From the NCBI RefSeq assembly GCF_018977255.1, contig NW_024704742.1:74216001-74280000 (forward strand): DNA of 64,000 nt. The letters are read 5' to 3'. How positions within the stretch are numbered: position 1 is the stretch's first letter; every line of letters starts with the position of its first letter. Source of the stretch: Callorhinchus milii. Its lineage: Eukaryota. The notes below the pieces were generated by a model that was not told where the DNA came from, did no database searches, and was given only the letters and a program-made list of their open reading frames with translations. A program made the position numbers and the translations under genes. Positions 1 to 63,409 of the stretch are shown piece by piece.

Positions 1-535
1 CTCCTACAAAGCATGTCTTAAGACCCTCCTCTTCGACCGCGCATTTGGCCAACCTTCTACCCCAACCTTCCCTGCCCTCCACCCCCCCTCGATTTGAATC
101 CATGCTCAGGTCCAAATCTCTGACAGTCCAGCGCCTCGGGACGTCCTCCCAACATGAAAGGCGCTATACAAATGTAATTTGTTGTTGTTACCCCAAGCAC
201 ATGACAAACAGGATTGCTATTTGGCTGTGGCACAGTGAATGGGACACGTTTACTCAGTAATGAATGGAGTGACTGCATTATCTAGCAGCCAGCCACTGAC
301 CTCTTTCTTTTGGCTGAGTTTATGGGTTTGTTTGGAGCGTTAAACCGAGGCTCGTCTGTCTGTTCAGGTGGATGTTAAAGACCCCATGGCACTATTCAAA
401 GGGAGAAGGGAGTTTCAGAACATTCAGGAAGATTCAACCTGCACTGAACATTCTTAGGATTAGACAGCTTCAGGCTCACACTTGGTTGGTCTAAAGAGTC
501 TGGTCCTATTAAACTTAGGAAGCAGCTCTGGGGTG

Positions 536-614
536 GAGAATACGTGCTGCCTGTCTGAAGGGATGGAGGGAGAACACAAATGGCTCTCATCTGAGCTGCC
601 CCCTCACGTCCATG
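536..614 (-). repeat. Inverted intronic copy of PRAG1 exonic sequence 1087-1166
   Basis: The reverse complement of 536-614 aligns to 1087-1166 with 4 substitutions and one 1-nt gap (read directly). Confidence 0.95.
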
Positions 615-835
615 CCGCCAAATGTGATCTGGCAGAAGTAGGTGATATAGCACAATAATTCTTCTCTCATTAATAAGAAAGCCATGACTGAGGAATTTAG
701 ACAAGAGGTGAACCCCAAGCTCCTTCGAGACCTGTCAGTAGTTTTCATGGCTACTACATTCACACCTTGCCCACAGTGCTGCAGCACGTGCTTCCTGAAT
801 TGTTGCTAAATTATCTCCTCTTTTGATCCTTGCAG

Positions 836-1581
836 GTCAAGCAGCCGAGATTGTGATCTGTGTAAATGGTTCTCACAGCTGGAGAGATGGTCACCCTGTC
901 TCTGCCAAGTCAATGGATGATGCACTTCCCAGCAGGGGCCAGCCTCCGCCGCTTCCCCTAAAGAAAGTCGGAAATAGAACAACCTCCGCCCCCGACTGCT
1001 CATCTTGGAGGGACTTATCACCGAGGAGAACCAATACGTCTTCCAGCAGCAGCTACCTGAATGTCAGTGTTTCTGATGGTGTCCTCCATGGACATGAGGG
1101 GGGCAGCTCAGATGAGTGCCATTTGTGTTCTCCCTCCAGCCCTTCAGACAGGCAGCATGTATTCTCTTCCTGTGAGTCGCTGGAGAAGTGTGTTCCTGGC
1201 TACATGCACAAAGCTCACAGTTCAGATGACAACTCCAACAGGAATGATCAAAGCCTTCGGTCTGTTTCTTCCAATCAGATCAGCTTAGCTAATCAGAGCT
1301 CCTCAGTCTCGAATCTGCAGCTGCACAGACTCCTCAGTAACATGGACAGTAAGGAAGGGATGCACGCCAAGCTGGGCAGCCTGTACGCAGAGTCCCTCCG
1401 GCGACTGGCAGTCAAGTGTGAAGATTTCTTTATGCGAGGGCAGAAAGCACAACTGCACTTCAATGAAAACAACTGGTCAGATTTCAAGCTGATATGTAAT
1501 CAGCCTTGCTGTGATGCTGGTGATGCTATTTACTATTCAGCAGCCTTTGCCAGGGACCCAGACAACCAATATGCAGTAAAG
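836..1581 (+). CDS. PRAG1: PRAG1 (SGK223/pragmin, PEAK-family pseudokinase), penultimate coding exon; upstream exons lie outside the window
   Basis: Acceptor ttttgatccttgcag|836 (phase 1) and donor AAG|gtatgt at 1581. Encodes a PPPLPLKK proline-rich motif, the N-terminal SHED helix (GMHAKLGSLYAESLRRLAVKCEDFF) and the start of the kinase N-lobe (PCCDAGDAIYY...YAVK). Confidence 0.9.
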
Positions 1582-2873
1582 GTATGTTTATCAGAGTCTA
1601 ATCTGCAGTATTTCTGAATGGATTTCTTAATAAGAAATGTGTAATTATCGAATCTCTAAAACTTTGAATCTATCCTTCAGCACATTTCTAGGTTTTAGAT
1701 ATTCAAAAGTGGCATATTTCTTATTTTATAATAATAATAATCTTTGCATTTGATATAGTGCCTTATCACGTCGTTGCGACGTCTCAAAGCGCTTCACAGA
1801 ACATATTGTAAATTCTGAGATTTGTTAATTTGTTACTTCAAATTAGATCTCATCATTGACATTGCTAATGAGTTAATTAGAGTAAATTCCATGCAATTAA
1901 TCTACAGCGCTTGGGCAAAGACTCAAACGGGACAAATATACACTCAATAAAGAAACGATTGAAGTGGGAGGGCAATTTGTTTATCCGTTATCTGGGATCT
2001 GCAGGATCTTAGTCCCCGAAGATGTGCTCCACATTTGCTGTACCAATAAGCAACCCCCTTGGCAGTGTTAGCTGTACTGCAAAATGAGGTACGTGACATG
2101 ACAGAGAAATCATATACTTCATTGTTGAGAAAGAATGATTACACTGAAAAATTGCTTCTTTGAATCTTCATAACACTTTTCATGATGCTATAATTAAATG
2201 TAATTCCAAAAATAAGTTTAAAAAAGCCGTGAGCTTTTTTTTATACTACTGAACTCTGAATCTATGGAAAATTTGTTAAAATTACTTAATTTTATTGCGA
2301 GGTATACATAAGCCATTGCTCCACTCATTTTATTCCAGCAAATAGTTGACACGCCTGTTACGATATGATAAGAATTATAGAAAGTTTACACTACAGAGGG
2401 CCATTTAGCTCATGGTCTTTGTGCTGGGGCTGCCTCCTTCTCATGAGCTACCCACTCCACTTGCTCCTTCTAAGCCCTTTACGGTTTTTCAGTCATTTGT
2501 CTTTTAAAGCTATTGTGGACTTAGCTTCAAGTTGTGATAAAGGTTTCTAAGAAGCCTATGGTAGAATGTGGATTTTGCCCCTCTTCAGCAATTCAACCCA
2601 TAGACTAGACTACAAATATTAAACAAAAAACCTTGAAGTCTGCTCCAGAGCTTGCAATTTACAATCATTACTTCAGTTAAAGAAAAAAAACAAGGCAATT
2701 GAATCAAAAAAGGGAGAAAGTGTGTGGGGGGTGCGGGGGGGTGGCGTAGTGCCACCTAGTGGTGTTAATTAACACTGAGAATATGTGATACTTCTTCAAC
2801 ATCACTGTTAGCGTGGGGTGGGGTGGGCTGTAGGAATGATTCTCTGGTGTTTTATGTGCATGTTTAATTATCT

Positions 2874-2945
2874 TGTGTGTGTGTGTATGTTTGTGTTTTG
2901 TGTGTGTATGCATGTGTGGATTTCAATGTTTTCTGTGTATGTGTG
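2874..2945. repeat. Imperfect (GT)n microsatellite
   Basis: tgtgtgtgtgtgtatgtttgtgttttgtgtgtgtatg... Confidence 0.7.
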
Positions 2946-3378
2946 GGGTTAGGCACTCAGGTGGAGGAGCAGCATGCATTGCTAACATAATATCTAGCTA
3001 TAATTTCATTATGATTGTCAGAGAACTGTTTGGTTGTTACCATAAAAATGAAACAATAGTAAAAATGACTCACACAACATATGATAATAATAGTAATAAT
3101 AATAACCCTTGCATTTGATATAGCACCTTATCACGTCTTCGAGACATCTCAAAGCGCTTCACAGAATATACTGTAAAGATGCTGCAGACCATTGCAGAGC
3201 TATGCAGAATATACTGCGACTGTATATTTTGTGGGCGAATACTGTGAGCTTATCAGTCATGCCTTCAATGCTCAAAACTGTGTGAAGTCTCAGCTTCCAG
3301 GTCCTGTACTATACCTGGTACTAATTATCAGTTTATTGAATATGGAGAGAATCTTATTTCTGAATTTTTTCCCGACAG

Positions 3379-4479
3379 GTCTGTAAAAACCATGGTCCGG
3401 ATTCTCATCAAGCCCATTTCTACAGTCTCTCTGTGCAGCAGAGCCTCTCAGCCCATTTCAACATCCAACAAGACTGTGGCTATTTTATAGCCTCTGTTCC
3501 TCCGAGCATGCTACCACGTGATGAAGAAGCCACCGCTTTGCAGGATGGGAGGACCGCAGATGGGGATGACCAGGGTAATGCTAACACGAGTCTTGCTGAT
3601 CTGAGCAGCTCAGTGACAGACAGGGTGGTTGTCATAACCCGGGAGGTTCCTCATCAGACAGCAGCTGACTATGCACGGGAGTGGCTGCATCTCCACAGAT
3701 CACAGCCAGACGACTATGAGCGCTGGGTATGTCTGCTTCTACTGCAGCTCTGCAATGGTCTGGAGCATCTGAAAGAGCGTAACGTCACACACTGCGATCT
3801 TTGCCTGGAGAACCTACTGCTGGTTCACTGTAGACCCGGCAAGAGGCACAGTGAGAACAAGAAAGATCGCCTGAGCCAAGTCCGTTTATCCCGGCTTATT
3901 ATAAGCAACTTTTTAAAAGCTAAGCAAAAGCCGGTGGCAAATGACGCTAGGCTCAGACGTGACCAAGCTCGCTTGGCCCCTGAAATCGTGTCTGCATCAC
4001 AGTACAAAAAGTTTGACGAATTTCAGACGGGGATCCTCCTTTATGAACTTTTACACCAGCCAAATCCTTTCGAGGTAAACCCGAAGCTCAGAGAGCAGGA
4101 GTACAATTTGGAGGATCTTCCCTCAATCCCCAGAGCCTCTCTCTACTCCAAGGGTCTACAACATCTAGTCCAACTATTGCTGGAAGCAGATCCCATCAAA
4201 CGCATCCATATCTCAGAGGCCAAACGAATATTGCAGTGTCTACTTTGGGGTCCACGGAAAGACCTCATGGAACAGAAATTAAGGAGCAAAGAGATGGCTT
4301 ATGGTGTTCTACAGAACTGGCTTGATGTGAAGCGAGCGCTGCTTATGATAAAGTTTGCAGAACGTTCGTTGAGCCTTGAGCACAGGGTGGAGCTGGAGGA
4401 CTGGCTCTGTTGCCAATACTTTGCGTTTGCAAGCCCTGACTCCCTGTATCACACAGCACGACTTCTGCATCTTTTGTAA
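3379..4479 (+). CDS. PRAG1: PRAG1 last coding exon (pseudokinase domain and C-terminal SHED helices)
   Basis: Acceptor ttttcccgacag|3379 is in frame with the previous exon (YAVK|VCK). Motifs HFNIQQDCG, VVVITREVPHQT, LQLCNGLEHLKE, IISNFLKAKQK (NFL replaces DFG), ARLAPEIVSASQY, LLEADPIKR, VELEDWLCCQY; ends LLHLL*. These diagnostic segments match remembered PRAG1 better than PEAK1. Confidence 0.9.
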   Translation, partial: VCKNHGPDSHQAHFYSLSVQQSLSAHFNIQQDCGYFIASVPPSMLPRDEEATALQDGRTADGDDQGNANTSLADLSSSVTDRVVVITREVPHQTAADYAREWLHLHRSQPDDYERWVCLLLLQLCNGLEHLKERNVTHCDLCLENLLLVHCRPGKRHSENKKDRLSQVRLSRLIISNFLKAKQKPVANDARLRRDQARLAPEIVSASQYKKFDEFQTGILLYELLHQPNPFEVNPKLREQEYNLEDLPSIPRASLYSKGLQHLVQLLLEADPIKRIHISEAKRILQCLLWGPRKDLMEQKLRSKEMAYGVLQNWLDVKRALLMIKFAERSLSLEHRVELEDWLCCQYFAFASPDSLYHTARLLHLL

Positions 4480-8669: not shown

Positions 8670-9080
8670 TTGCCGTGCTGTACACTGTGACTCAATATCA
8701 GTCTCCATTGCCGTGCTGCACACTGTGACTCAATATCAGTCTCCATTGCCGTGCTGCACACTGTGACTCAATATCAGTCTCCATTGCCGTGCTGCACACT
8801 GTGGCTCAGGATCTGTCTCCATTGCCGTGCTGCACACTGTGACTCAATATCAGTCTCCATTGCCGTGCTGTACACTGTGACTCAATATCAGTCTTCATTG
8901 CCGTGCTGCACACTGTGGTTCAGGATCAGTCTCCATTGCCGTGCTGCACACTGTGGCTCAGGATCTGTCTCCATTGCCGTGCTGCACACTGTGGTTCAGG
9001 ATCAGTCTCCATTGCCGTGCTGCACACTGTGGTTCAGGATCAGTCTCCATTGCTGTGCTGCACACTGTGGCTCAGGATCA
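8670..9080. repeat. 38-bp minisatellite, ~11 copies
   Basis: Unit ccattgccgtgctgcacactgtgactcaatatcagtct recurs at 8705, 8743, 8781 and onward, with variant second halves (gtggctcaggatctgtct, gtggttcaggatcagtct). Confidence 0.95.
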
Positions 9081-9134
9081 AGGAGAATGTTTAAACCATA
9101 AGGGAGATCATTGTTGAATGCAAAAACGTAACAT

Positions 9135-9355
9135 ACTGCAGATGCTGGAAATCTGAAACAAAAACAGCAGTCGCTGGGAACAGTCAGCAGATCAGGCTAT
9201 GGATATGGATATGGAAAGTGAGTCAACGTTTTGGGTCCACAATCCGAAACGACAAAGTTCTGATGAAGGGTTGTGGACCCGAAACATTGACTCACTTTCC
9301 TTTCTCCATAGATGCTGCCTGACCTGCTGAGTGTTCCCAGCGACTTCTGTCATTG
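9135..9355. mobile_element. Inverted-repeat element resembling a Penelope-like terminal repeat, with a hammerhead-like core
   Basis: Arms agtcgctgggaaca..gaaagtgagtcaacgttttgggtccacaa and ttgtggacccgaaacattgactcactttc..tgttcccagcgact are complementary; CTGATGA...GAAA at 9260-9284. Degenerate relatives at ~8420-8535 and ~29510-29605. Confidence 0.6.
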
Positions 9356-10754
9356 TTGAATGAACTGACAGATTTGGGAGGGAAAGTACGTGGTTGCTGC
9401 TTTGTGAGTTGCAGTCAGGCAGCACATCACCATGACCATGAAACAGTACCACACCTTCAGCAATTCTGCTTTTCCACTCAGCTTTTGGACTTTTCAGTTC
9501 TAAAGGTTTTCTTAAATGTTTTAATTTCCTCAGTATATAGTACCTGTGCTTAGCATAGTATTTCTGTCTGTGTTTAATAACTACTGTAAATAAAATCATT
9601 TTGGTTAAATTGGAAAAAGGCTGGTATATTGTAATTTTGCCTTCTGAAAGAGCTTGGAGATTGAATAAAATAATAATCCTTACATTTCATATAGAGTATT
9701 TCACGTTGGGAGGACATATCAAAGCGCTTCATAGGATTTACTGGGTCTTATTGTTATTGACGATGCAACAACAATAACAAAATTACATTTGTATAGCGCT
9801 TTCACATCGGGAGGACGTCCCAAGGCCCTGGACAATCAGTGTTTCTGACCCGAACGGAGGGTTGGGATCAGGGAGTGTGGAGGGCAAAGGGGGAAGGATG
9901 GTGATCGAAGGCATGGTTGAAGAGGAGGGTCTTAAAATGGGTCTTGAAGGAGGCAAAGGGAGGGGGCAAGGTGGAGGGACTGTGGGATGGAGTTCCAGAG
10001 GGAGGGGGCAGAGTGGCTGAAGGCCACTATAAATGCACAATTATAATGGGGAAATAATAATGATCCTTGCATTTGATGTAGAACGTTTCATGTTGGAAGT
10101 TTCAAAGAGCTTCACAGGGTTTGATGTAAAGTAGTGTCTGTATTTTGTGGGTTTACATGGCAACGATTTGCACACAGCAATGTTCCACAACCGTCCATGA
10201 AGTGAATGATCAGTTTTTATCTTGAGGATTGTTGGCCAGGACACAAGGAGAAACTCCCTTTTTGAGTAGTGCCTTGCGATCTTTATTTCACATCGACCTG
10301 AACAGACAGAAGGGATCTTGATTTCACATCCCAGCTAAAGGGTGGCACTTCTGACACTGCAGTGATTCACTCACCTAGACTAGAAACTCAAAATTGGTTG
10401 TGGGTTTGACTCAGAGGTGAGAATGCTGTCAACTGAACTAGGCTTACGCCTGGCTACTTGCAGTTTCTGAATTCTTAATATCAACATATTTGGGTAGGTC
10501 TTTGGGATTCAACAACACCCAGCAATCACTACTGAAAAAACTGCAATGCTGAGAACTCTTGAATCATATTGGATTATAACCTGAGCAGGTTTTGTCAACA
10601 AATGTTAATGACCTGGGTGTGGAATTGTCACCCAGCCAGCATTCAGCATAGAGTCGGCACTTCCCTTGCAAAAGAGTGGCTGTTTGTTTTCCCAAAACCT
10701 TTTGCTCAAGCCTCCTCCTTAACACTACAACAACATTGTACTATGTCAGCCTGG

Positions 10755-11930: not shown

Positions 11931-11986
11931 TATAATAATAATAATCCTTGCATTTGATATCAAATGCAAGGTTCATTATTATTATA
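11931..11986. repeat. 56-bp near-perfect palindrome inside a SINE tail
   Basis: Perfect 26-bp core ccttgcatttgatatcaaatgcaagg (11946-11971) with (taa)n/(tta)n arms. Confidence 0.9.
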
Positions 11987-13080: not shown

Positions 13081-14064
13081 TTAATGATGTTGCGACACAA
13101 TGCACATTGCCACCAGCACCAGCATGTACATTACCGGGCTGAGAATACAGGCAGACCTGCACATCATTAGCACGTAAGCCAAAGTTCGGAGCTCCACAGC
13201 TATCAAAATGTATGCAGTTATCAGTCGTGTTTGTATCCATGTGAATACTTTATAGACAATCAGCAGCAGCCTTGATTTCTTGGTGAGTGGCATAATATAA
13301 TGGTGAACATAATAGTCGGCTTTTACACTGCAAGCCCACAAAACAAACCCGAAGACTTGACCAGGGTGAAGGCCATGCCACCATGCTGAGAAGGCAAATG
13401 TTGCTAAAAGAGGATGAACTTTGCTTCGCTGAAACACCATCCTTCTAAGCCAGTCGGCTGTGGTTTTGTTCCACGTTCGAGTGAACTCTGATATCTTATT
13501 AGTTGTCTCCAGGGTCCATATGTCAGCATCTGAGAGAGCACTGCAGACACATCTCTCCTTCTTGGCCTGTCCCTCAAATCCCAGGCCAACTAAGTTATTG
13601 AGAGATTCGCTGAGGAGCCATTGAGAGTAATATGCTAACCTGAACATCAAAGCTGTCATCGATATCAATAAAATATCCTTAGAAACATCACAATACAAGA
13701 CCCTTGATCGATGCCCTCTATGACACGAATACAATTTGTCAGAAACATTCTTAATCTGTCCATTATGAAAACTAATAAGCACTTCTTTAAAAAAGGCCAG
13801 ATGGAATTTGCATTTCTTTTTTGCTGAGACTTTTTAAGATTTTCCATATGGATTTGAAACATTTGGAAGGAACATAGAGGTCCTCCAAGTAGGGCAGGGA
13901 AATATAGTACGTAGCTGATGTGTGGTAATAAGCAACGGAGAAATTCTGAGGAACTGTGATGCCGCTGCATTTTTGCAATTGTGACTTTGCCTTCGTGAAC
14001 ATCCAAGGACACGGACGTTACTCTCTGAATGAGCAGCATAAGTGATGACAGAGCTATCAGGAAC
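13081..14064 (-). CDS. MBOAT4: MBOAT4 coding exon 3, containing one frameshift near 13700 (possible pseudogene or assembly error)
   Basis: Acceptor tttcacatgtag|14064. Frame A: FLIALSSLMLLIQRVTSVSLD...YFPALLGGPLCSF, stop at 13665-13667. Frame B: YYSQW...DADIWTLE...WNKTTADWLRRMVF...FAFSAWWHGLHPGQVFGF, stop at 13081-13083. The exon is 984 nt, and 985 is needed for a single frame. Confidence 0.88.
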
Positions 14065-14699
14065 CTACATGTGAAAGAAAGTATGGGTGTCATTAATTTT
14101 TTTCTCGCAAATTACCAGCAAAATATTGCTCGTTAAAAAATCTATTCACAAAAATCTATGAAGGATGCACTTTATATGACACAATTCTATGCAAATTAAC
14201 ATTTATATCGTGCCTTTAATGTTAGAAGGATGTCCCAAAGCACAAAACACTGCTGGCTGGCCATCCTAGCTGGAGGTCGGAGCTGACGGGGTGGGAAAGG
14301 GAAAGATGACTGAAAGAGAGTATGTCTTGAGAGTGTCAATACTCAATGTCATTATAGAATGTTACTACTTCCAAAATATTTTTCCCCTGCATTCTTCATT
14401 TTCCTGTCTTCCCTGTGAGTTAGCTTACTGAAAGTGGATCCTCAGATCAACTCTGACACAGTTGGGACCTATTGCTATTCAATGTTCAAAATACAGACAT
14501 GGGTCTTGAACCCACAACCTTCCACCTCAGTGCTACCAATTGAGTCAGGCTAACACAAAGAGTGAACTGGTAGAAACCTATAAAATGAATGGCTTGATGG
14601 CCTTCTTAAATTTTTTTTGAGTGATCTGTACAGTACTTCCATATGTGTGTGATTTTTCTTACACATTGACAGAACAATGTACTTCTTATTATAGGATCC

Positions 14700-21575: not shown

Positions 21576-24500
21576 TATTAGATCTTAGAACCATAGAAAT
21601 TGACAGCACAGAAGAGGCCCATTTGGCCCTTCGTGGGCAGACAAAGATTTGTTTGAAACGAGCTGTTGGAATTTTGATAAAGGCAAAAAGATGTTGAGAA
21701 CTACCGATAGCAGTGACGGGATGAGACTGTCTGTCTCAAAAGATGTTTTTAGTAAACCTAAATCTGGATATCTTTACAAGGTCTAAATGTAAGGATTATT
21801 CTCAACGAAGGCAGAAGAGCAGAGATTTGGATAATGGACTAGCCATCTATAAACAACATCTTAAAACAAGAAAACAAAGAAAGGAGACAACCGTCAACAT
21901 GACAGACGCTCACGAAACAACAATCCTGGTACCAGTCGAAATTCTCAATGAAGGAGAAGAACTGAGTTTGGAGTAATTGCTGAGTTTGGGAATGAAGAGG
22001 CTAAATTCAACCAATCTTGAGGAAAGAGAGATATACTATATCAACATGGATCGACTCACGTTAACAAGTCGATTTCTCCATCAAAACCACTGTATTGATC
22101 CCATCAACTCATTACAGTGAATTTTACTAACCCGTTGTAAGCTTCAATCTGATTACTAACCTGTTGTAAGCATTAATTTGATTTGATGAGATGTATAACT
22201 TTGATAATAATAATAATAATAATAATCCTTGCATTTGATATAGCGCTTTTCACGTCGGGAGGACGTCCCAAAGCGCTTCACAGAACACACTGTAAAGTGA
22301 ATTGACTGTATATTTGTGGGCGAACGCGGCAGCCAATTGCGCACAGCAATGTCCCACAAACAGTCGTAGATTGAAAATGACCAATTTATTATTGTTTTTG
22401 GAGGGATTATTGATATGCATAACTTTGATAATTTTATACTGAATTAAATGTTACTACTTGAAAGAATTTGTATCAGTACATACTTCACTGCAGGGTCACA
22501 AATTTTATCGAACCTTACAGGGGGCAGAATGGCTGAAAGCTCTGGGCAAATCAGGTGGGGGACATAAAGCAGACACTTTGCTGATTCGAGGGAGCAGCCA
22601 GAACAGTAGGGTCGAAGGGGATTGCAGAGGTAGAGTGGGTCAGACCATGAAAGGATTTGAAAATGGAAGCGAATCTTGAATATAATCTACTGCGGGAGCC
22701 AATGGAGGCAAGCTGTGGGTGATGTGTTCGCAAAGCCTAGTACAGGAGAAAAACACTTTTCTTTACAATTTCTTATCTATACGAATCAATCCCTTGGTAT
22801 TAAAAGTCATTTAAAATGATAGTTTTATTGTTCCTAAGTTACAAAAATGTGTACCAAACGTAAACAGTAACCTTTCAAATAAAAAAAATGCTTTCGTAAT
22901 GAGCAGGTGCAAACAAATTGTTGGAAGAGATTATTTAAGACTTTGAAAATAAGTTGATTGTTATATAAACTGTTATAGTAATAAATTGTATATCACAGAT
23001 TTCAAGCGGACACCACAGAATTGTTTACAACCTATTCCATTTACTTTAGATGCTTTGTATTCTTCAAAATATCTGACTTTACCTTCTGTTTTAGTGTTAC
23101 ACATTGCGTGAAGTCTGAAAGGGCTGTGTCTGAGTGGATAGTGTTTCTTCTGTAACAGAGAACTATAAATTGTGGCAATAATAATGTGATGCAGAATTTC
23201 AACAGAGGAGGTACGGTTGAGATAGTCAGAGGTCCAGAGAAGCAGGATACTGTATCAATAATGATAGTTGTGAGGGACGGAGGTGGGGGTATTTTTTCCA
23301 GACAACAAAATTGGCTAGAAAATAAAAGAAAAACTGCAGATGAGTCTTAATCTTAATTAAAGCTAAACACTAAAATTCACAGCAGGCTTATCAGCAACTG
23401 TTAGTCCATCAGTCCATGGGAATCTTTTCTCCCACCCCCACTAGCCCGGACTCAAACACGGAAGAGAACGGACAGGAGAAAACCAGTGAGAAAAGAAAAA
23501 CTTTGCCCTTTATTTTCTCACAGAAAAAACACAGGAGTCATTAAGAAACATAAACCCAAATGCCATCTAATGGATAAAGCTTGAAACAGCCGATGATGGT
23601 TCTGTACATAGGCCAAGCACAGGTTGGAGTTAAGGTGCTTCAATTATTTTTCTATTCACAGCAGCTTTTGGTTTCTACAAAAGGATCTCGAAGGATAGGG
23701 GAGATCTCTGCTATTTTATCACAGAAATAAATCTTAACCCCTTTCCCAACTGACCACACTCCTTGGAAGTTCTACTTGCAGCACCCAGGAACTGTTACCA
23801 TAGAGATAATCTCCACAGTTTGCTTATGTAGTCCTTGGAACTGATCGCTAATAACATTATCATGAAAAATTGATCTCCTCACATCCAGTTATATGCTAAA
23901 CATTTATAGAATGTTAATAAATGTTGATAACCACACAAGAGAAGGAAGCTGGCCACAGCACACACGATGATTTGTCAAATAGAAGAGTTTTGTGAATTAG
24001 TTCTATGTTTATTTTTATTTCAGAATATCACTCTTTAGACAATAATACCAGTAAAAAATCTGTTGGAAAGATTCAACTGCAAAAGATTACATAGAATTAC
24101 AGAGGACATAGGATCCAGATATCAGAAGAAGACGGACAGGAGAGCTAAGCAGAATTTTTTTCACACAGAGTTGGGACGTGGAATGCCTGTAAGTTCAAGG
24201 TATGTTGGTAGAGGCAGAATACATTTGATTTCAAGAGGAAATTAGACAGGTACATTAAAGATAAAGACTTGAAGGTCTATGGGCATAAGGTAAGCAATGG
24301 GACTGAATGGATAGTTTGCTCTGAGACCTGGGGCAGGCTCAATGGCCTCTTTTGAACTGTAAATTTCTATGATTACAAGGTTACAGTACAAAAATAGGCC
24401 ATTTCGCCCAACTAGTCTGCACAACTGCTTATACTCCACTCAAGCCTCCACCCCACCCCCCCATACCCATCCATATACCTCTCTGTTCCCTTCACACACA

Positions 24501-26588
24501 TAATGCACACACACACCACTTTAAAGGATATCCTGTGAACCCCTTTAAAGCATCTCGAGGACAAGATAGATGATATATCAAATGCAAGAATTATTATATA
24601 TGTATGCATCAAGTTTCCTCTTGAAGGTCTATGGGCTTTTTGCTTTAACCACAGCTTGTGGCAGTGAGTTTCATATTCTCACATCCTCTGCATGAAGAAG
24701 TTTCTATTAAATAGGACTATGTCTTCACTGAGGTTAATTCAGCTTCTCACACTGTCAGACTCCACATCTTTTTCCCAACTGTTCATTTTTGGCTATGATA
24801 TGGGATTACAGGAATGATTTGGTACATTTTCTGAAAGGTTATTGCCAGGTGGGAGCTGCAAACCTTCAATAAAATCCAGAACATTTGTCACATTTACATT
24901 ATTTGGCAGAAGACCTCAGACTTGTATTGCTGTACAAATTCAGAAAACCAAAACGATGACATGCTAACCTGATGAGAGAATCTGTCAGTTTAGCCAAAGA
25001 TATAACATGGTTTCATTGATATGAAACATCCTTTCTGCCATATTTACTGCACCATGTTCAGCTTCCCACAGACTTACATCAGACTGAGTTTCAGTTTTGT
25101 TAAAAATATTGTTTAAAGCATGTTAAAACTGTTCTCTAAAAATAATAATTTAGAATAAAGGAATATATTAAAATCAGCTATTTGATTTGGATTTATTCTT
25201 TATTGGATTTGTTTTTGGCAAGTCCTCATCCAACAAATAGTATATCTAAAACAGTTTTGGAACACTCACATTAGAACGCTAGTAGAGATGGCAATACTGT
25301 ATTTACGTCTGAGTGGCCAAAGGCATCTTTGAAGTGGATTTGAGATGGGACTTAAAGACAGAGAGCGGGCAAGACAATTGGTAATGGGAGAGAGTTTCAG
25401 AGGTTTGGAGTGTGGGACTGAAGTTTTGGCAACCGATGGTGCAGAGAAGGCAGGGGACGCGCAACAAACCCAATGAGCTGAGTAGAGAAGGCAAGTGGAC
25501 AAGTAGGGTAAGAGAAGAGAGATAATGAGGTTCCAAGGAGTATATAAAACTACAGGTGAGAATGAGAAGCTCAAATTGATCCACTAGGAGCCAGGAGCCA
25601 ATGAAGACTGGCAAAGAATAGGGTGATGGTGTTGGGCATGTGGAGTTTGATGGGGCTGAAGATGCGGACAGTGGTTTTGAATGACTCTTCCGTTCCTCTT
25701 TCCCATGTACAAATCAAGAATGCTCCTTGTTGGTAGCATTGATAAGAACTCTGAGACATTACCCTGGTTGGAGGGCACTATATAAGTGCAAGTTGTTGTA
25801 ACACAACCTGAAGCAGTAAGATAATTCAGTTTCACTAAAAATTCAACAAAATTATTCTGAGTCTTTTATTTTACTTTATAATAAGAGAGTAAACCTCTAC
25901 TCCTCTGTCTCATCTACCTCTTTGTCTTTAAATCCTGCCTAAAAAACTACCTCTTCAATGTACCTACAATCATCAGGATCATCTCCCCATTCCCACCTTT
26001 CTTCTGTCCTCCTCCCCCTTTCCTTTGCTTGGCATCTGACCCCATTCTTGTGAAGTGTTTCGAGGCATTATCCTACATGAAGAACGCTATATAAATGCAT
26101 GTTATTGTTGAGTAAGTTGAGTAAAAGTACTTCACTCAATTTTTCTTGCCTCTTTAAGTAATTAAAGTAAATTAAAGAAAATTGAAGAAAGTTTACCTTG
26201 ATTATAAACTAAACCAATGTACTGATTTCACATTGACACTTTCCTAGTGACACAAGTTCTGAATTTTCACTGGAACAAAGTTATGATCAAATAAAGATCT
26301 TCTGAAAGATTTTTAGAGGACAGTGAAAGATTACAACTGCTGCTTGGTAAATCAATATCGGGGGTGGGGGTGCGGGGTGGGGGGAGCATATTATACTATT
26401 ACAATTGAGGAATATGCAATTGTAAATTCCATGATACCCTAGAGAGTTCAATAAAGCCAAAGAGTATTTTCTTCAAGAGCAAAGGAGAAATAGAGAATGA
26501 CCCAATTCTGTTTTGAAACTACTGATGTATTGTTCTTGACTTGCATGTGAAAATCTGTAGTACAGGTACAACAACTTAATCTGAAATC

Positions 26589-36094: not shown

Positions 36095-37810
36095 ACAACA
36101 ACAAAATTACGTTTGAAAGGTGCCTTTCACGTCGGGAGGACGTCCCAAGGCACTAAACAGTCGGGGATCAGGATCCAAGCATGGTGGGGCAGGGTTGGGA
36201 TGAGAAAGGGCAGCGAGATAGGAGGAGGGCGGCTGAAGACACGGTTGTATAGGAGGGTCTTGAGTCGTGCCTTGAAGGAGGCAAGGGAGGGAGCAAGGCG
36301 AAGGGATTGTGGGATGGAGTTCCAAAGGGTGGGGCAGAGAGGCTGAAAGCCCGCCGCCGATGGTAGGGCGGGTCGGATGGGAGGCATGGAGCAGGCCGGA
36401 GCCTGCTGAGCGGAGGAAGTGAAAAGGTTGATACAGGGTCAGTAGGTCAGAGAGGTAGGAAGTGGCAAGGCCGTCTGGAAAGTGAGAACAAGGATTTTGA
36501 ATTCTATCCTCTGGGGATGGGGAGCCTGTGGAGTCGGGCGAGGGTGGGGGCGATGGGGTCACGGAGCCTGGTGTGGGAGAGGACATGAGCTGTAGAGTTC
36601 TAGATGATCTGCAGCTTGTGGAGGGAAGAGTTGGGAAGGCCGACAAGGAGGGAATTTCCGTAGTCAAGCCTTGAGGTGACAAATGCGTGGGTGAGGTTTT
36701 CAGAGGCCTGTGGTGTGAGGCAGTGGCAGAGTTGGGCAATGTTGAGGAGGTGGGGGAAGGCAGAGCGGGTCATGGCACGGATATGGGAGAGAAAGGACAA
36801 TTGAGTAATCACTAAGACGCCAAGCTTCCTGACTGCTTGGTGAGATGTAGTGCATCCGTGGATGCTGATGCTGCCAGTGCCTGAGGTGCGGAGGTGCTGG
36901 CACAAGCCAATCGGGGGCCTCGGTCTTGCTGACATTTAGCTGTGGAAAGGTGGCTGTCATCTAGGACTTGATGTCTGACAGACAGTCTGTCAAGACAGCA
37001 GTTGTCCTGGAATCAAGGGTGGAGGTAGAGAGATAGAGTTGGGTGTCATCTGCGTACGTGTAAAAATTGACCCTATGTCTGCGGATGATGTCACCGAGGG
37101 GGAGCATGTAGAGGTTTGAAAAGGAGGGGACCGAGAACAGAGCCCTGAGGAACACCGCACAAGACTGTGCGGGGGCTGGAAGAGAAACTGTTGGCGGAGA
37201 CAAATTGGAGACGGTGTGAGAGATAAGACCTGAACCATTCGAGGACAGAACCTTGAAGGTTGAGGTGAGAGGAGAGGCGGTGGAGGAGGATAGAGTGGTC
37301 CACGGTATCGAAGGCAGCAGAGAGGTCGAGCAGGACGAGGGGGCAGAGGGAGCCCTGGTCACAGGTGAATCTTGACCAGAGCAGTTTCTGTGCTGCGAGC
37401 CCGATTGGAGGGCCTCATGATGAGAGTGGTAGGAGACAAAAGAGCGAAGCTGAGAAGCAACGACTCTTTCAAGGACCTTGGAAAGAAAAGGCAGATAGTT
37501 AGAAAGCAGGGATGGGTTCAGGGAAGGTGTTTTCAGGATGGAGGTGATTATAGCTGTTTTTAGGGGGATGGGAACGGTGCCAGGTGATAAGGAGAGATTG
37601 ATGGTTTTGGAGTGTAGAGGGGTGAGGAGGTGGAGCTGGGAGGTAAGGAGAGGGGTGGGGATGGTGTCAAGGGAGCAGGTGGTGTGTTTTGTGCTGGATA
37701 TGGTGGTGATGAGAGAGGAGGGGGAGACAGGTTCGAAAATGTGGAGGGAGGGATGTGTGGGGGGAGATGCGGAGGGAGTGGCGGTTGGGAGGGTGGAGGC
37801 AGCTGAACGG
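36095..37810 (-). mobile_element. L2-clade LINE, decayed reverse transcriptase
   Basis: [43 protein letters not shown]; tail at the left end. Confidence 0.9.
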
Positions 37811-39102
37811 ATCCCCTTGATAACTGAATAACGAATTAGAAGACGAGGGTTAATATTGACATCTATTATTGAACATTTAGTTGAACTGGCTTGAATGAAG
37901 ATTGTTAATTGCATTCCTTGGAGTACCACAGTGTACATGTGTGCCAACCTGGACATGCATGCCCATTCAAAATGTCTATTAGACTAATGGCCCAAATCTG
38001 ACGTTCACTGTTCAGAGTTATTAGAGAGCTCATCTGAAAAGTTTGTCATTGCTTTTGCTGTTTGATTTGAAGGCTTTGATGTTGATTTGATTGAACAGCC
38101 TGAATGTTGAGGTATTTTATCATACTCGGCAGTGATGCTGAATCAAATGCAGTTGCACTGTAGCTGAATTACAGCATTAACACTTTGATGCAGCCACTCC
38201 CAGGTAGGCTTGGCTATTTAAGCGAAACAGTGAAACATCAGCAATGTTGTAATGCACATCTTACATATTACAATTGCTTTTCAGCTGGCTCCGTAAAAAC
38301 AATATAACTGCTATATTGAGAAAACTGATATAATTTATAATATCTGTGGTTATATTCTACCTTGGCTGGTTGTCATAATTTGTTTTTATTGTTTAAGTTG
38401 ATTCACTAGTTTGCAGAGCAAGGATATCACTTTTAAAAGTTATAGAAATGAGCTCCATTTTATATTCTACATGTTAGTTGGCCTCTGTGTTGTGTTGAGC
38501 ATTTTATTTTTCCTCCTTGGGAGAGAGGTAAGCAGCGTTTTCTTGACTGAACTGGCTTCAAGGAATCAAGTCAGTTATTTGGGGTAGTCTTGGTACTGTT
38601 CCTCAGACAGTATTCTAGGACACTGCTGAAGACCAGATATCCTGACTCATCAGCGGGCAAGGATTCTTTCCTCTTGGCTGTTAACCCTGCAAGCCATAGC
38701 CCTAACAGGTAAGTAAGGTATTCCTCCTGCACCAGCAGTGGGAAGCAAACCAGGCAATGTTTGCAGTGACAAACTATGCAGTTTTAGCTGGTTAAACTCC
38801 AGGAATACATGTTGGGGTCCTCTAGCCTTGCTCTCGCCAATCTGTGCCAACACTTTCCAGACAGAGAGTGAGCATTCCATTCCAGCTCAGAGACATTTTT
38901 GTGCATAGGTGGCATGCATATGTGGAACTCTGCTTGTTTTATATGCTTTTAAGCATGGTGATGACTTTCCAAATGGGTCAAACTGTTCAAAGAGGAAAAA
39001 TTGATCATCGTAATTTAAAGTCCAACAGTAGGCTTAACAATATGAATGGAGAGGACGAATTGTGGACTTCCAAAATTTATGATTGTTTTATTCTTTTTTA
39101 AG

Positions 39103-39216: not shown

Positions 39217-39584
39217 GTAAGTATCATAGCGAGCTTTTATTGTTGATTCTTCCCTCTCAGACTTTTGCCACCATTAGACAGAGCTATTTGTTTTTCCAAA
39301 CAGACTGAATTACCGGTTAGGGAGACCAGTCAGCATGTATGGGCAGCAGAGACTACATTGTACACTAGTTAACATGAATACTGGATAGTCTTGCTTCTTT
39401 CTGGTTTCTTTGTGTGAGCCTCAATTCTTCTAATTACTAAATTGGTATTAGTGCAAACTCGATTTTGCAACTTTCCCTCTAAATACAGAAATAATCAAAG
39501 GCTCAGTCAAAAAGATAGATCTCAAGATGGGTTTAAAAGATTGGGAGAGCAAGGCAAAGGGACAAAAGATTTTTAACCAACTGC

Positions 39585-40675
39585 TTCCACCATCTTCGCA
39601 AACGGTTTCTCCTCCAGTCCCCACCTGGTCATCTGCGGTGTACCACAGGGCTCCAACCTTGGCCCCCTTATTTTCTTCATCTACATGCTCCCTCTTGGTG
39701 ATATCATCCACAGACACGAGGTAAACTTCCACATGTATGCGGATGATACACAAATCTACTTTGCCTCCTCCAGGACTGCCAATGTTCTATCAGTTTGTCT
39801 GGCAGACATCAGGGCCTGGAGGAGTGCAAACTTCCTGCAGCAGAATGAGGACAAGACAGAAGCCATAATCCTTGGCTCCCCTCAACTTTTTCAGTCCTGT
39901 GGATCTGACCTTCTAAACCTCCACAGCCTTTCCCTCAGCCTCACTGAACTAGTGCGCAATCTAGGCGTCCGATTCAACCCCCAGCTGTTGTTCCTCCCCC
40001 ACAACGGGTCCTTGACCAGGACCACCTTCCTCCACCTCCGCCACATTGCCCGCCTCCGACCGTACCTTACCCCAAATGCAGCTGAAACCCTCGTGCATGT
40101 GTATGTCACCTCCCATCTGGATTACTCAAACGCACACCTCGCCAGTCTCCCCAGCTGCACTGTTCAAAAGATCCAGCTCATTCAGAACTCTGCCGCCCGC
40201 ATACTGACCCAGACCAAACTCTGTGCCACATCTCACCAGTTCTGGCCGAGCTCCACTTGCTCCCCATCACCGAACGGATCGACTTCAAGATCCTCACACT
40301 CATGTTCAAATCCATTTGCTTTCTGGCACCTCATTACCTCTCCGACCTCCTCACTCCCCAATCAACCACCCGGCTCCTCTGCTCGACTGGCACCGACCCC
40401 TTGCTTGTCCCTCACACCCTCCGCTCCAGCACTGAGGGTTGCACTTTCAGCCATTAAGCCCTGAAACTCTGGAATACTCTCCCTCAATCCCTCTCCTTGC
40501 CCCCTTTCACCCCTTTTTCAAGTCCTGCCTGAAAACCTTCCTTTTCGACCATGCTTATGGTCACCTCCCCTTCCCCCCCCTCCTCCCAAGCTCGGAGTCA
40601 GGCTGCGCCACTGTTAAGCGTTCTGATACGCTACCCTACGTGGAAGGTGCTATACAAGTACAAGTTGTTGTTGTT
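39585..40675 (+). mobile_element. L2-clade LINE 3' fragment
   Basis: [23 protein letters not shown]; (ttg)n tail; same subfamily as 26970-28485. Confidence 0.9.
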
Positions 40676-49774: not shown

Positions 49775-50727
49775 GTATGACAAACTATCAGAATTGTTCT
49801 GTTGTTGGACCGATGGGGATCCAGAGAAGTGGTGCAGTATTAAAGATCACTTTTAAACTGAATTATGTTCCAACTCATCCAAACTCTGTATTCTTTCCCA
49901 TATCAATCTGCATACCCATTACACTGTTCCTCTCCTAGCTTCTAATACCTCAGTTGATCTCTTAAAGATCTTCCCCTGGACTTTAAACCCTCGGTGATCA
50001 TGCTCTCTTCACATTTTCAATGTCTTTGAAGAGTTCCTACTGGTAAATTGGCCACTCTCCTCAATTTTGTTTGTTAGCAAAACAACTGCTACAAAAATCA
50101 TTACATTTGATGATAATGCTATAAAGTTCTTTGATACTTTTGGCACATAAGGCACTATAAAAATGCAAGTTAATTTTCTCCATCTAGCCCTATTCTCTTG
50201 CCTGTGCCCTCCACTATTCCACCTCTGGCCGTTAAGTCATTGAAAAAAATGCTCATCTTCTTTACTGATCATCTGGTCTCTATTTGAATTGGAATGTATG
50301 CATCTTAATTATTTTGACAACAGTTCTTCATCTGCTATGTAAGCATGTTCTTTTCTGCTTCTATTAAAATATTGAGGCTGCAGCTTACAACACAGAACTA
50401 CAGTGACCAAAACACCTAGGAGACATTTTTGTTCTGAATTTACTTCTGTTAGACACACTTATCCTATTGTGAAGGAAAATGATGACTAAAAAAACTGAAA
50501 TAATAAAGTAAACTGTACCAAATAGAGGTAATTTAACATTAAAAAGCTTGTGTAGTGTAGTAATTGTGCTATTGTTATGTAAACGTGTTTTATATGAATA
50601 TAACTAGTAGCAGGAGGATTAGTTCATTTAGTGCAATCAATCCATATTGTGATTACAGTATTTGCTTCCTGCTTATTCAAGAAGAATTCAAGCACATTTA
50701 AATTGTAGTTTTGTTCACATTGTGCAG

Positions 50728-50956
50728 GTTGGTGGTCGAGTTCCCTGCAACAGGAGGTGCTCTTTCATCGTGGCAGTTCCAGACGGTGAAACTTATTCGT
50801 TATATCTCCAGCTTTGACTTTTTCCTGGCAGCTTGTGAAATTGCTTTCAGTATTTTCATTTTTTACTACATAGTTGAGGAGATTCTGGAGATTTACATTC
50901 ATAGACTACATTACTTCAGAAATCTTTGGAATTGTCTGGACATTGTCATTATCATG
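50728..50956 (+). CDS. PKD2: PKD2 exon 6
   Basis: 229 nt; [10 protein letters not shown]...[17 protein letters not shown]...WNCLD. Confidence 0.95.
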
Positions 50957-51389
50957 GTAAGTGTTGACGTAAATGCCTGTGATAACAATTGTCTTCATAG
51001 TTGGAGAGTCAATGATGGCAATGATAGGAACTTGTCTTCAAAGTTTGGACACAGACTCCGTTTTCTAGTGAAACCCAAGCTCTCTATACGTTCTATCCTG
51101 TCATGTGAACAGTTCCATATGCCATTGCCTACTAAGTGCTTACTTGTTATTGCTGAAATCTTCACAACATGACATTGTCACCTCTACACACTCATTAGTT
51201 TTCTATGTTTCTGTTAATGTTTCTCATGGACTCATCCATTGATGTAGAATTTTTGTAAACTCAGACTATATGCTGCAGACTTTCTCCCTGATGTCTTCTT
51301 GCCTAGAAAAATCCAATTTAATTCTAAAATGTCATTTTGATTTATTTTTTCAAATCAGCAGGGTAGGTTAAGTATAGTGTATATTTTAC

Positions 51390-60208: not shown

Positions 60209-62560
60209 TAAGAACATAAGAACATAAGAATCAGGGGCAGGAGTAGGCCATTCGGCCCCTCGAGCCTGCCCCGCCATTTGATAAGATCATGGCTGATCTT
60301 CAGATCTAACTCTAATTACCTGCCCTATCCCCATATTCCCTCATCCCTCTATTTTTTAAAAATCTATCAGTCTCAGCCTTGAAGATATTCAAGGACTGAG
60401 CATCTACAGCCTTCTGGGTAGTGAATTCCATAAATTCACGACCCTCTGAGTGAAGAAATGTTTCCTCAACTCTGTTCTAAAAGGCTGACCCTTAATTTTA
60501 AGACTGTGACCCCTGGTTATAGATTCTCCATCCAGGGGAAACAGACCCTCAGTGTCTACTTTATTCAGCTCTTTAAGAACCTTATGTGTTTCAATAAGAT
60601 CTCCCCTAATTCTTCTGTACTCTAGAGAATATAGCCCTAGTTTACTCAGCCTATTCTCATAGGTCAGTCCCCTCATCCCAGGAACTAACCGAGTGAATCT
60701 ACGCTGTACCCCCTCTAGGGCAAGTATGTCCTTTTTAAATAAGGACCAAAACTGCACACAATACTCTAGGTGCGGTCTCATCAAGGCCCTACACAGTTAC
60801 AGCAGGACTTCCCTACTCTTGAACTCTGAACCTTTTGCAATAAACGCTAACATGCCGTTCGCCTTCTTAGCCGTTTGCCTCTCAAAGCCAGTCAGGAACC
60901 TCGGCGTTCTGTTCGACCCTGAGCTATCCTTTCTTCCTCATATCTGCGCCACAACTGGCACCGCCTTCCATCACCTCCGGAATATCGCCAAGACTACGGC
61001 ACTACCTCACCCCTCACGCTGCTGAAACACTGGTCCACGCCTTTATCATCTCAAGGCTGGACTATGGGAACTCTCTCCTCGCCGGCCTTCCCGGCAGCTC
61101 CCTCCACAAGCTGCAGGTCATCCAGAACTCTGCAGCTCGTGTACTGTCCCGCACCAGGCTTCGCGACCACATCACTCCCACCCTCGCTCGCCTCCACTGG
61201 CTTCCCATCCCCCAGAGGATCGAATTCAAGATGCTCATCCTCACCTACAAGGCCATTCACGGTCTTACTCCCTCCTACCTCTCTGACCTACTATCCCCCT
61301 ACTTACCTGCCCGTACCCTCCGTTCCTCTGGCTCTGGTCTGCTCCACATCCCCCGCCCTAACCGCCCTACCATCGGTGGCCGGACCTTCAGCCTCTCAGC
61401 CCCAAGGCTCTGGAACTCCATCCCCCAGTGCCTTCGCCGCTTCCTCCCTTTCCTCTTTCAAGGCCGGTCTCAAGACCTTTCTCTTTGACCGTGCCTTCAG
61501 CTCCCCTCTCGACTCTCTAAACCCTCCTCACTCCCTCCTTTCCCTCCCCTCACCCTGACGAGACCCTGCTCGGGTCCCGACCCAACTGTCCAGTGCCTTG
61601 GGATGTCCTCCCGACGTGAAAGGCGCTCTATAAATGAAATCTTGTTGTTGTTGTTAGTTGCTTGCTGCACCTGCAAACTAACTTTTTGAGACCGGTGTAC
61701 AAGGACACCCAAATCCCTCTGAACACTAACACTATCTAATCTCTCCTCCTCTAGAAAATAATCTTTGTTTTTCTATTCTTTCTACCTAGGTGAATAACTT
61801 CACACTTCCCCACATTAAATTCCATCTGCCACCTACTCGCCCACTCCCCAGGCCTATCTATATCCAGTTGCAATCTTTTTGCATCATCCTTAGAGCTTAC
61901 TCTCCCACCTAGTTTAGTGTCATCCATGAATTTAGATATGTTACATTCAATGTCCTCGTCTAGATCAATAGCTGAGGCCCAAGCACTGATCCTTGTGGCA
62001 CTCCACCAGTCACATCCTGCCAATTCGAGAATGACCCGTTTATCCCTATTCTCTGTTTTCTACCCGTTAGCCACTCTTCAATCCATGCTAATATGTTCCC
62101 ATTAATCCCGTGGGCTTTAACTTTGTGCAATAGCCTTTGTGGCACTTTGTCAAATGCCTTTTTAAAATCTAAATATACTACATCTACTGGTTCCCCCCTA
62201 TCTAACCTGCTGGATACATCTTCAAAAAACTCTAAAAGATTAGGTAAGCATGACTTCCCTTTTGTAAAGCCATGTTGACTCTGCCTAATCCTGTTATGGT
62301 TTTCCAGGAATCCCATAACGACATCTTTAATTAAGGACTCAAGAATTTTCCCTACCACTGATGTCAGACTAACTGGTCTACAGTTCCCCATCTTTTCTCT
62401 CCCACCTTTCTTAAATAGTGGTGTTACGTTTGCAATCTTCCAGTCAATGGGAACCGTTCCAGAATCCAGAAAATTTTGGAAGATCAAAGACAAGCCATCC
62501 ACTATCTCAGTAGCCACCTCTTTTAAAACCCTAGGATGTAGGCCATCAGGTCCAGGAGAT
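60209..62560 (-). mobile_element. CR1 LINE (reverse transcriptase region), interrupted by a nested L2
   Basis: [66 protein letters not shown]; (ttcttatg)n 3' tail at 60209-60230. Confidence 0.92.
60871..61653 (+). mobile_element. Young L2 inserted antisense into the CR1
   Basis: VRNLGVLFDPELSF...; (ttg)n tail; ttag on both sides (60867-60870 and 61654-61657). Confidence 0.88.
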
Positions 62561-63409
62561 TTTAAGTAGCAGAATCCTTTATCAATTTGAATTACAAGGG
62601 GCAGGGCAAGGTCCCAATCAGGTCCCAAGATCTCTATTCTGCAACATCATTAAGAAATGTATTTCCTTTCTTTGTTCTTTTTCTGACAACGTATTACAGT
62701 GGAGCCTTGTTATAAGGTGGTAGTTGAGGTCCATTAATATCCCAATCCACCTCATAACGAGATCACAATAGCTGTTTTCACTGGGATTTGCATACCGGAA
62801 GCCAAAATGGCAGCTTCTGGGTCATCAAGTCTCCATTGATGTAATTTCTTGTGCACTTGGTATGTGCAGTGTCCAGGAAGTGACTTAGGTGGAGGTCTAT
62901 TGACCCACAAGTTGACCATCTAAAGCACAGGAGCAGGTTGGCATGTGGGAAGTGAGCTGGCTGTACACATGCAGAGTGACTGGGGCCCACACCCCATTTC
63001 TGTTATAAATGAACCAGTCCTATGAAGAAGTAACCTGTGCTATAATACAGTGCAATTTTGTACATTATGAACACCAACCTTGTGCCATACAGAAATCCCT
63101 TACAGTATAGATGCACTTTTCGCCTGCAGAACCACCACTTTAAAGATTGTCTTATTCCAACGTATTGTTCATTTTGACTGAATGTCTTCTAAGCTGTTGG
63201 GTAGAAGGTTTAACAGATGTGCACCAATTATAAAGAACATACAGTTTTTAATCCACTTTCTCATATAGTCTTTACTTCTGAAACTACTTAGACTACCCTG
63301 GGAGTGGTTTTGGGGACTCAAACCTATATCTTGCTATGTACATATTCAGCCATTATGAAGGGTTTCACTACACAGACTATCCTAGAAATACTTGAAATCT
63401 ATTTCACAG

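Follow-up and report, generated by a model that had tools for sequence, protein, structure and literature searches.

An intron of the gene PRAG1 in Callorhinchus milii carries, shortly before one of the gene's coding exons, a 79-nucleotide (nt) inverted copy of part of that same exon. The copy lies at positions 536-614, and its source at 1087-1166, of a 64,000-nt stretch of genomic DNA (NCBI RefSeq assembly GCF_018977255.1, contig NW_024704742.1, positions 74,216,001 to 74,280,000 of the forward strand), hereafter called the window, whose first letter is position 1. The reading that we favor, at a probability of about 0.7, is that the copy is a neutral scar left by a templated inverted insertion and that only incidentally is it a potential substrate for ADAR. 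An earlier note, made from the letters of the window, had weighed two readings: an undescribed editing or splicing element of PRAG1 and a neutral template-switch duplication. We found no support for the former. The latter is better supported, by a transcript consensus free of editing, by differences between the two arms that look neutral, by the apparently weak conservation of the intronic arm, and by a sister event in the following intron.

By local alignment, 75 of 80 columns are identical (93.75%) between the intronic arm and the reverse complement of the exonic arm, the remainder being four substitutions and a 1-nt indel, just as the earlier note had reported. The alignment consists of two blocks, exon 1087-1097 against intron 614-604 and exon 1099-1166 against intron 603-536. 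The mismatches, too, are those that had been described. A1094, the second base of a CAT (His) codon that in the copy reads CGT (Arg), stands opposite C607; the exon has one extra G in the run at 1098-1103, producing a bulge; U1117 faces U; G1139 faces A; and U1158 forms a wobble pair with G. The homology had been said to stop abruptly at both ends, and it does so sharply at 1087/614, while beyond 1166/536 only 8 of 15 positions match. Gapless repeat detection finds the same pair as arms 521-603 / 1099-1181 with 88% identity. The extension of the repeat to 521/1181 obtained by a permissive alignment was treated as chance, with its 8 matches over 15 extra positions. The match as a whole is not a chance event: its inverted local alignment score within 1-3000 is 133, while 100 mononucleotide shuffles averaged 29.5 and reached 60 at most.

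Pairs derived from an interspersed repeat or a transposon should be recognizable by many copies, and these were looked for in the 991.5-Mb assembly. Searches with 520-630 and with 400-700 returned the query itself and the exonic arm and nothing else, bearing out for the whole genome the absence of further copies that had been claimed for the window. The flanks of the intronic arm (429-535 and 615-646) have no second copy in the genome, and a search of them for further templated pieces gave only chance-level 9- to 14-mers in the window (blastn-short) and none in the genome. What is found, then, is the reverse complement of a nearby, genome-unique sequence, as a template switch would produce, with the source 472 nt away.

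A second inverted pair lies one intron downstream, between 3177-3201 and the last coding exon at 3746-3770, and its intronic arm interrupts a short interspersed nuclear element (SINE). Relative to three other copies of this SINE, 8-9 nt have been replaced by about 40 nt, consisting in order of the 25-nt inverted exon copy, ATG, a 12-nt direct repeat, and CG. The three other copies lack the insert, which is therefore the derived state with respect to the family, and there is a possible overlap of microhomology (CAG/GCAG) at the junction. Inverted and direct copies at one junction are the pattern by which a template switch in several steps, or break repair with templated synthesis, can be recognized. 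The arms of this pair are 544 nt apart, their predicted duplex has a free energy of -45.4 kcal/mol, and the pairing is present in the minimum free energy (MFE) fold of 3150-3800. The two pairs resemble each other in geometry: measured from the 3' splice site of each, the intronic arm stops 219 and 177 nt short of it, the exonic arm begins 251 and 367 nt beyond it, and the loops measure 472 and 544 nt. Because the second pair shows the pattern of templated insertion and the geometry is alike, the 80-nt copy most likely arose in the same way.

The following sequence of events would account for the first pair. A templated inverted insertion would have placed in the intron a copy of about 80 nt, read from the strand complementary to the exon some 470 nt downstream. 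This would have happened around or before the separation of C. milii from two relatives, and its cause would be either a template switch in replication or snap-back synthesis in break repair. The intronic arm would then have drifted at an approximately neutral rate. As a by-product, the pre-mRNA would fold into a near-perfect duplex of 79 bp around the 3' splice site, which ADAR could in principle deaminate before the intron is removed. Any such editing would presumably be low in level and not a selected function. We infer how the copy originated, that it is neutral, and that the duplex forms in vivo; the features on which these inferences bear are collected in Table 1.

Table 1. Features of the two inverted pairs and exons of PRAG1, in window coordinates (negative numbers lie upstream of the window)
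Feature	Position	Strand	Description
Intronic arm	536..614	+	79-nt reverse-complement copy of coding 1087-1166; ends 219 nt before the 3' splice-site AG
Exonic arm	1087..1166	+	PRAG1 coding sequence, 80 nt (HGHEGGSSDECHLCSPSSPSDRQHVFS), with 251 nt of the exon ahead of it
Loop	615..1086	+	472 nt; polypyrimidine tract, AG 834-835, first 251 nt of the exon
Intron stretch with the intronic arm	429..646	+	218 nt; skipped in the species B contig, no species C contig placed there
Second intronic inverted copy	3177..3201	+	25 nt, 24/25 against the reverse complement of 3746-3770; inside a SINE; 177 nt upstream of the last exon
Source of second copy	3746..3770	+	Part of the last exon encoding QLCNGLEHL of the pseudokinase domain; preceded by 367 nt of this exon, which starts at 3379
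Direct repeat (CAGAATATACTG)	3205..3216	+	12 nt, direct repeat of SINE 3162-3173; just after the second inverted copy
PRAG1 coding exon	836..1581	+	Residues ~871-1118 of the 1484-residue protein; acceptor AG 834-835, donor GT 1582-1583; X5 contig and tblastn
PRAG1 coding exon	-16813 to -16520		tblastn
PRAG1 coding exon	-13948 to -11798		tblastn
PRAG1 coding exon	-3992 to -3816		tblastn
PRAG1 last exon	3379-4476		tblastn

Inverted duplicates can be artefacts of amplification or assembly, and the earlier note had considered that the inversion might prove to be an assembly chimera. It is not, and the idea that the inversion is such a chimera, or else a variant private to the sequenced animal, is barely credible. 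Two separately assembled contigs of run X1, covering 400-831 and 808-1700, show no difference from the genome. These are Logan contigs, assembled from words of 31 letters (k = 31), and since the longest exact block common to both arms, as counted from the local alignment, is only 21 nt, assembly by 31-mers would not be confused by the repeat. Four runs from four samples of one study contain 0.97-0.99 of 124 sampled words of 480-1620, so that the copy is present in 4/4 DNA-like runs. A related species also has an inverted junction at the same source boundary, 1087. The copy appears to be fixed or common in C. milii.

Contigs from two related species, here called B and C, were aligned at a likeness of at least 80%, and their evidence on the intronic arm comes entirely from contig joints; zero cover of the species B and C contigs over 444-619, like that of run X5 over the intron, was given no weight. 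In the exon, the two species share 32 differences from the window, falling in 23 synonymous and 9 non-synonymous codons (synonymous divergence, dS = 0.156; non-synonymous divergence, dN = 0.016; dN/dS = 0.10). Just two of the differences, at 1101 and 1122, fall within the exonic arm, and both are synonymous. Nearly all differences from the window are common to B and C, which are therefore close to each other. The species B contig (X7) joins 428 to 647. The species C contig (X11) runs from 1697 down to 647 and then continues for 43 letters on the opposite strand from 1087. Since this junction matches the intronic arm of the window in both orientation and source boundary, at least a portion of this inverted copy is present in species C, although the inverted piece was placed by alignment on the exonic arm, not on the intronic one, and it lacks the 32 nt of 615-646. 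Examined as outgroups that might lack the insert, the contig joints thus offer a skipped stretch in B that is larger than the copy and a part of the copy in C. The simplest history would have the copy arise once, ahead of the split, and then be lost or truncated in B and C. Conservation of the intronic arm, to judge from these joints, looks weak.

The differences between the arms look much like those expected of unconstrained sequence. Only one of the five (U:G) preserves pairing, and the two transitions have given one wobble and one A:C, in agreement with the 50:50 expected under neutrality. Read as codons, the copy would change His to Arg, Cys to Ser, and Ser to Ile, with one synonymous change (1158, CAT to CAC) and one frameshift. 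With non-synonymous changes and a frameshift in the copy, most of the changes must have fallen on the unconstrained intronic copy, and this agrees with the observation that, among the differences listed, B and C share the exon states of the window at the mismatch sites. Neutral divergence between the window and species B is between 0.062 (4 of 65 intron sites, 771-835) and 0.156 (dS). For a neutral arm of 79 nt plus about one change in the exon, 3.4-7.2 differences would be expected since the split, and 5 are observed. The count fits an intronic arm that has changed about as fast as neutral sequence would.

At two of the four substitutions the copy has CpG where the exon has CA/TG. The possibility that CGT (Arg) is ancestral and was lost by the exon was considered and set aside, as no difference in B or C is listed at 1094 or 1158 and the distant orthologues are too variable to settle it. 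The column of the His (codon 1093-1095) is occupied in 17 vertebrate PRAG1 orthologues by Q, Y, T, D, E, R, or H, while the later part of the exonic arm (PSSPxD...FSSxESLEK) is moderately conserved among PRAG1 proteins. The same region, window 1093-1110 (residues ~956-961), holds a four-residue insert (GGSS), encoded within the G-rich run of the exonic arm, and this insert is private to C. milii in comparison with 16 other vertebrate PRAG1 sequences.

Evidence from RNA bears on the exon, on its splicing, and on its editing. The open frame at 836-1581 finds as its best PDB match SgK223 (5ve6, E = 3.5e-38), with PEAK1 at 2.5e-26, and its product is 100% identical to part of a 1484-residue C. milii protein named PRAG1-like. 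By these similarities the host gene is PRAG1. A contig of run X5, 4715 nt long at a depth of 59.5, spans 835-1587 and runs past it on either side. Its left loose end has a single match in the genome, to an exon end at G000:C1:74212179 followed by GTAAGT, which makes the upstream intron about 4656 nt long. The right one matches 3385-3414, behind cag/GTCTGT at the start of the next exon (3379). None of the runs listed as containing the sequence is recorded as RNA. Because the contig joins three exons, X5 was treated as transcript-derived; together with its loose ends it places the acceptor AG at 834-835, the exon at 836-1581, and the donor GT at 1582-83. The apparent reach of the contig to 1587 results from the GTCTGT of the next exon being aligned on the GTATGT of the intron. 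In the last exon, at window 3393, the genome has T (CCATGG) where X5 has C (CCACGG), a difference at a CpG site and not an A>G change. It is most simply a polymorphism between individuals, and it implies that the X5 animal differs from the assembled one.

In silico, the duplex foreseen by the earlier note, an approximately 80-bp stem with a loop of about 470 nt containing the 3' splice site, does form. The fold of 500-1200 has a free energy of -308.5 kcal/mol, for which 20 shuffles give z = -9.4; its MFE and centroid structures both include the long stem, and the loop, of 472 nt, contains the AG at 834-835. A duplex of the arms alone is predicted at -153.8 kcal/mol. The stable pairing of an exon with an adjacent intron that ADAR recoding calls for is thus predicted here. 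The organism also encodes deaminases of the ADAR type: A_deamin (PF02137) matches above its curated cut-off at five loci of the genome, matches that do not tell ADAR apart from ADAT or ADAD. Two other roles for the stem were considered and ruled out, a miRNA-like hairpin by the 472-nt loop and the lack of an Rfam match, and an intron pair promoting circular RNA by the fact that one arm is exonic. In the search of Rfam models (cmscan, 1-4000, E <= 1), the only match was elsewhere, at 2705-2779, and at chance level (E = 0.52).

One might therefore imagine the intronic arm as a working editing-complementary sequence, by which nuclear ADAR recodes PRAG1 either from His to Arg at A1094 or promiscuously along the exonic arm. 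Such a function would draw on the strength of the predicted duplex, on the position of A1094 opposite C, on the A_deamin exons in the genome, and on the presence of the copy in all four DNA-like runs. The exonic arm would also be transcribed ahead of the donor site of its exon, so that pairing could precede the removal of the intron, and BLCAP offers a known case in which the complementary sequence lies in the intron upstream (extract of PMC10404624). Nevertheless we consider this function improbable. The earlier note had proposed looking for A-to-G changes in 1087-1166, especially at 1094, and the spliced X5 consensus shows none. The comparison was made at the level of contig consensus, and contigs drop minority variants. 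Over the 753 bases of 835-1587, the X5 contig has at most one other letter; among the changes listed there is no A>G, and the sole kind listed is a single G>A. The single other letter probably corresponds to the A/C at 1584, where the contig overshoots the exon toward 1587. The fraction of sampled words contained in X5 and in X6 is 0.65 each, equal to the fraction of the query taken up by the exon (746/1141 nt), so that essentially all exon words are present in unedited form. Editing of the majority of transcripts is absent at the consensus level, and an RNA-DNA difference of the kind that marks an ADAR recoding site is likewise absent there.

The exonic arm would also be a poor target. ADAR disfavors a C or G on the 5' side of its target adenosine, and 15 of the 16 adenosines of the exonic arm have one, A1094 (CAU) included; as sequence context for ADAR, the arm looks poor. 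Of the possible A>G changes, 12 of 16 would be non-synonymous, and in an exon with a dN/dS of 0.10 promiscuous editing would be costly. The His column on which a site-selective recoding would act is not conserved, neither species B nor species C shows the arm cleanly preserved, and the pattern of mismatches fits neutral decay. A literature search on PRAG1 (SGK223), RNA editing, and ADAR found no paper connecting them; the one match, for SGK223 with RNA editing, was a multi-omics study of CD4+ T cells.

How exceptional are the two pairs? Local inverted matches of at least 20 nt and at least 92% identity were scanned within distances of 3 kb. The 64-kb window has four, two of them heads of SINEs and the others the two PRAG1 pairs. 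When the window is extended by 200 kb upstream (264 kb in all), the two pairs are two of three non-repeat matches. The third (L022:1716-1757 / L022:2096-2137; 42 nt, 92.9%, arms 339 nt apart) lies about 38 kb upstream of the window start and about 21 kb before the first PRAG1 coding exon, and it may be seen as an event at the background rate. Within the 24-kb gene region, the two pairs are the only inverted matches that involve an exon, while 20 shuffles gave a single match at the same score threshold.

Several observations weigh against a neutral templated insertion. A second random event within about 8 kb would be expected only about 0.06 times (a post hoc figure), and the two pairs bracket consecutive 3' splice sites; that an unrelated second event should bracket the neighboring 3' splice site too is less likely still. 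No microhomology was detected at the 535/536 and 614/615 junctions, and 79 nt copied over about 470 nt exceeds the events of tens of bp described in the extract of PMC5453318. The copy has persisted, in 4/4 DNA-like runs and as the piece with boundary 1087 in species C, and the joint in the species B contig does not give the content between 428 and 647. Also, the contig consensus is compatible with editing in a minority of transcripts (below roughly half) or in unsampled tissues. The clustering could reflect a local hot spot, one complex event, longer detectability of pairs with an exonic arm, or selection. With regard to detectability, pairs with a conserved exonic arm would stay above the identity threshold about twice as long.

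If selection were responsible, the duplex might serve in the control of splicing: looping out the 3' splice site with 251 nt of exon could tune the rate or choice of the splice site or the retention of the intron, and the second pair could do likewise for the next intron. The similar geometry with which both pairs bracket a 3' splice site speaks for this, as does their standing as the sole exon-involving inverted matches of the gene region and as two of the three non-repeat matches in 264 kb. We regard it as unlikely, though. The X5 transcript is spliced normally at 835/836 and 1581/3379, and the splice site lies in a large open loop, not within the stem. The first arm is skipped by the species B contig, and the second is an insertion in a SINE with only 24 paired bases. 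As a statistic, the clustering was computed after the fact and is weak, and exon-sourced pairs remain detectable longer because one of their arms is under selection. The clustering, post hoc as it is, is nonetheless the reason for which a small chance is retained for a functional reading: that template switching produced two young complementarities between exon and upstream intron, bracketing the last two 3' splice sites of PRAG1, and that these were retained as working, lineage-specific editing guides or as loops that tune co-transcriptional splicing. This is doubtful, but if true, it would show how one mutation, by inserting an inverted copy of the exon to be edited, can give rise to a guide for ADAR.

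The window contains other repeats and open frames. SINE-like copies were seen at 1716-1830, 3076-3250, 10053-10077, 11931-11983, 22219-22242, and 24574-24597, and also at 1-180. The head of this repeat (...AATAATAATCCTTGCATTTGATATAG...) has up to about 90 matches per copy in 264 kb and is the source of most local inverted and direct matches. A short repeat at 1588-1675 has very high contig depth in all runs compared. The segments 9157-9197 / 9317-9357 form an inverted repeat of 41 nt, with arms 88% identical and 119 nt between them; before it, at 8691-9101, an open frame encodes tandem repeats of about 33 residues (LHCRAAHCDSISVSIAVLHTVTQYQSPLPCCTLW...); the feature spanning 8691-9357 is probably a repeat element. 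The segment 31767-32544 is very rich in GC, with long open frames on both strands that are rich in Ala, Gly, Pro, and Arg, and has the appearance either of a CpG island or of a neighboring gene's first exon. The open frame 13081-14111 (-) is hydrophobic and resembles a membrane protein, and 50702-51172 (+) is channel-like and transmembrane. Other open frames lie at 36961-37983 (-), 39577-40464 (+), and 61960-62646 (-). Several of the window's other open frames look, by appearance and with no database search made, like reverse-transcriptase fragments of long interspersed nuclear elements.

If the intronic copy is a scar, it offers a clean natural example of a known process, in which a single insertion gives a pre-mRNA an 80-bp duplex between exon and intron. 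Scars of this sort would be raw material for editing-complementary sequences or hairpin RNAs selected later, and they caution against inferring function from a perfect stem. If the duplex is edited or active in splicing, then the copy would represent a recent complementary sequence that can be dated and whose derivation from the exon can still be seen. A narrow literature search found no paper on a complementary sequence born by inverted duplication of its own exon, and a search on A-to-I recoding in C. milii matched only mammalian AMPA-receptor editing, going by titles.

Long near-perfect duplexes favor promiscuous over site-selective editing. Among known recoding sites, the closest in arrangement are those of BLCAP, where Y/C and Q/R recoding relies on complementarity to the intron upstream and takes place in the nucleus, ahead of splicing (extract of PMC10404624). 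As in BLCAP, the coding exon of PRAG1 is complementary to the intron directly upstream, and any action of ADAR would precede splicing. In BLCAP, however, editing has been demonstrated, whereas the PRAG1 consensus is without A>G and its duplex is much longer, nearly perfect, and restricted to a lineage. The GRIA2 Q/R, CAPS1 E/G, and 5-HT2C sites, from which the idea of a favored A:C mismatch in the earlier note was drawn, likewise depend on a duplex of exon and intron as the substrate of ADAR, but with the complementary sequence in the downstream intron (extract of PMC10404624). Their structures are conserved and imperfect, while the arm of PRAG1 is upstream and seems poorly conserved, and the transcript consensus is free of A>G.

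Insertions made by polymerase theta, through synthesis-dependent microhomology-mediated end joining (SD-MMEJ), are typically much shorter than 79 nt. In the second PRAG1 pair, the mixture of inverted and direct copies at 3177-3216 resembles what snap-back and loop-out synthesis make from the sequence flanking a junction (extracts of PMC5728401, PMC2943611, and PMC9303309). From sequence alone, an origin by break repair and one by replication would look the same. Template switching, for its part, has been described in the literature as giving rise to inverted repeats and to hairpins in RNA, as set out, in the extracts of these sources, for a four-point model (PMC5453318), for RNA hairpins (PMC8794818), and for intronic miRNA hairpins arising de novo (bioRxiv 10.1101/2023.04.19.537475). 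The likeness to PRAG1 lies in a one-step, reverse-complement copy of nearby sequence that yields a perfect stem in a transcribed intron, and in the inverted and direct pattern of the second pair. The published events, as far as these extracts go, are mostly of tens of bp and very local, whereas the PRAG1 copy is 79 nt over about 470 nt, has a coding source, and shows junctions without microhomology. As the product of a mutation, the PRAG1 copy is to be grouped with such hairpins, and only its length, span, and coding source set it apart. Finally, inverted pairs of SINE or Alu elements are promiscuous substrates of ADAR (extract of PMC4053975). They share with PRAG1 a long, near-perfect intramolecular duplex in the pre-mRNA, for which the expected outcome would be clustered A-to-I changes of low specificity. 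The PRAG1 arms differ from them in being unique and in that one of the two is coding, so that any editing of this duplex would recode the protein.

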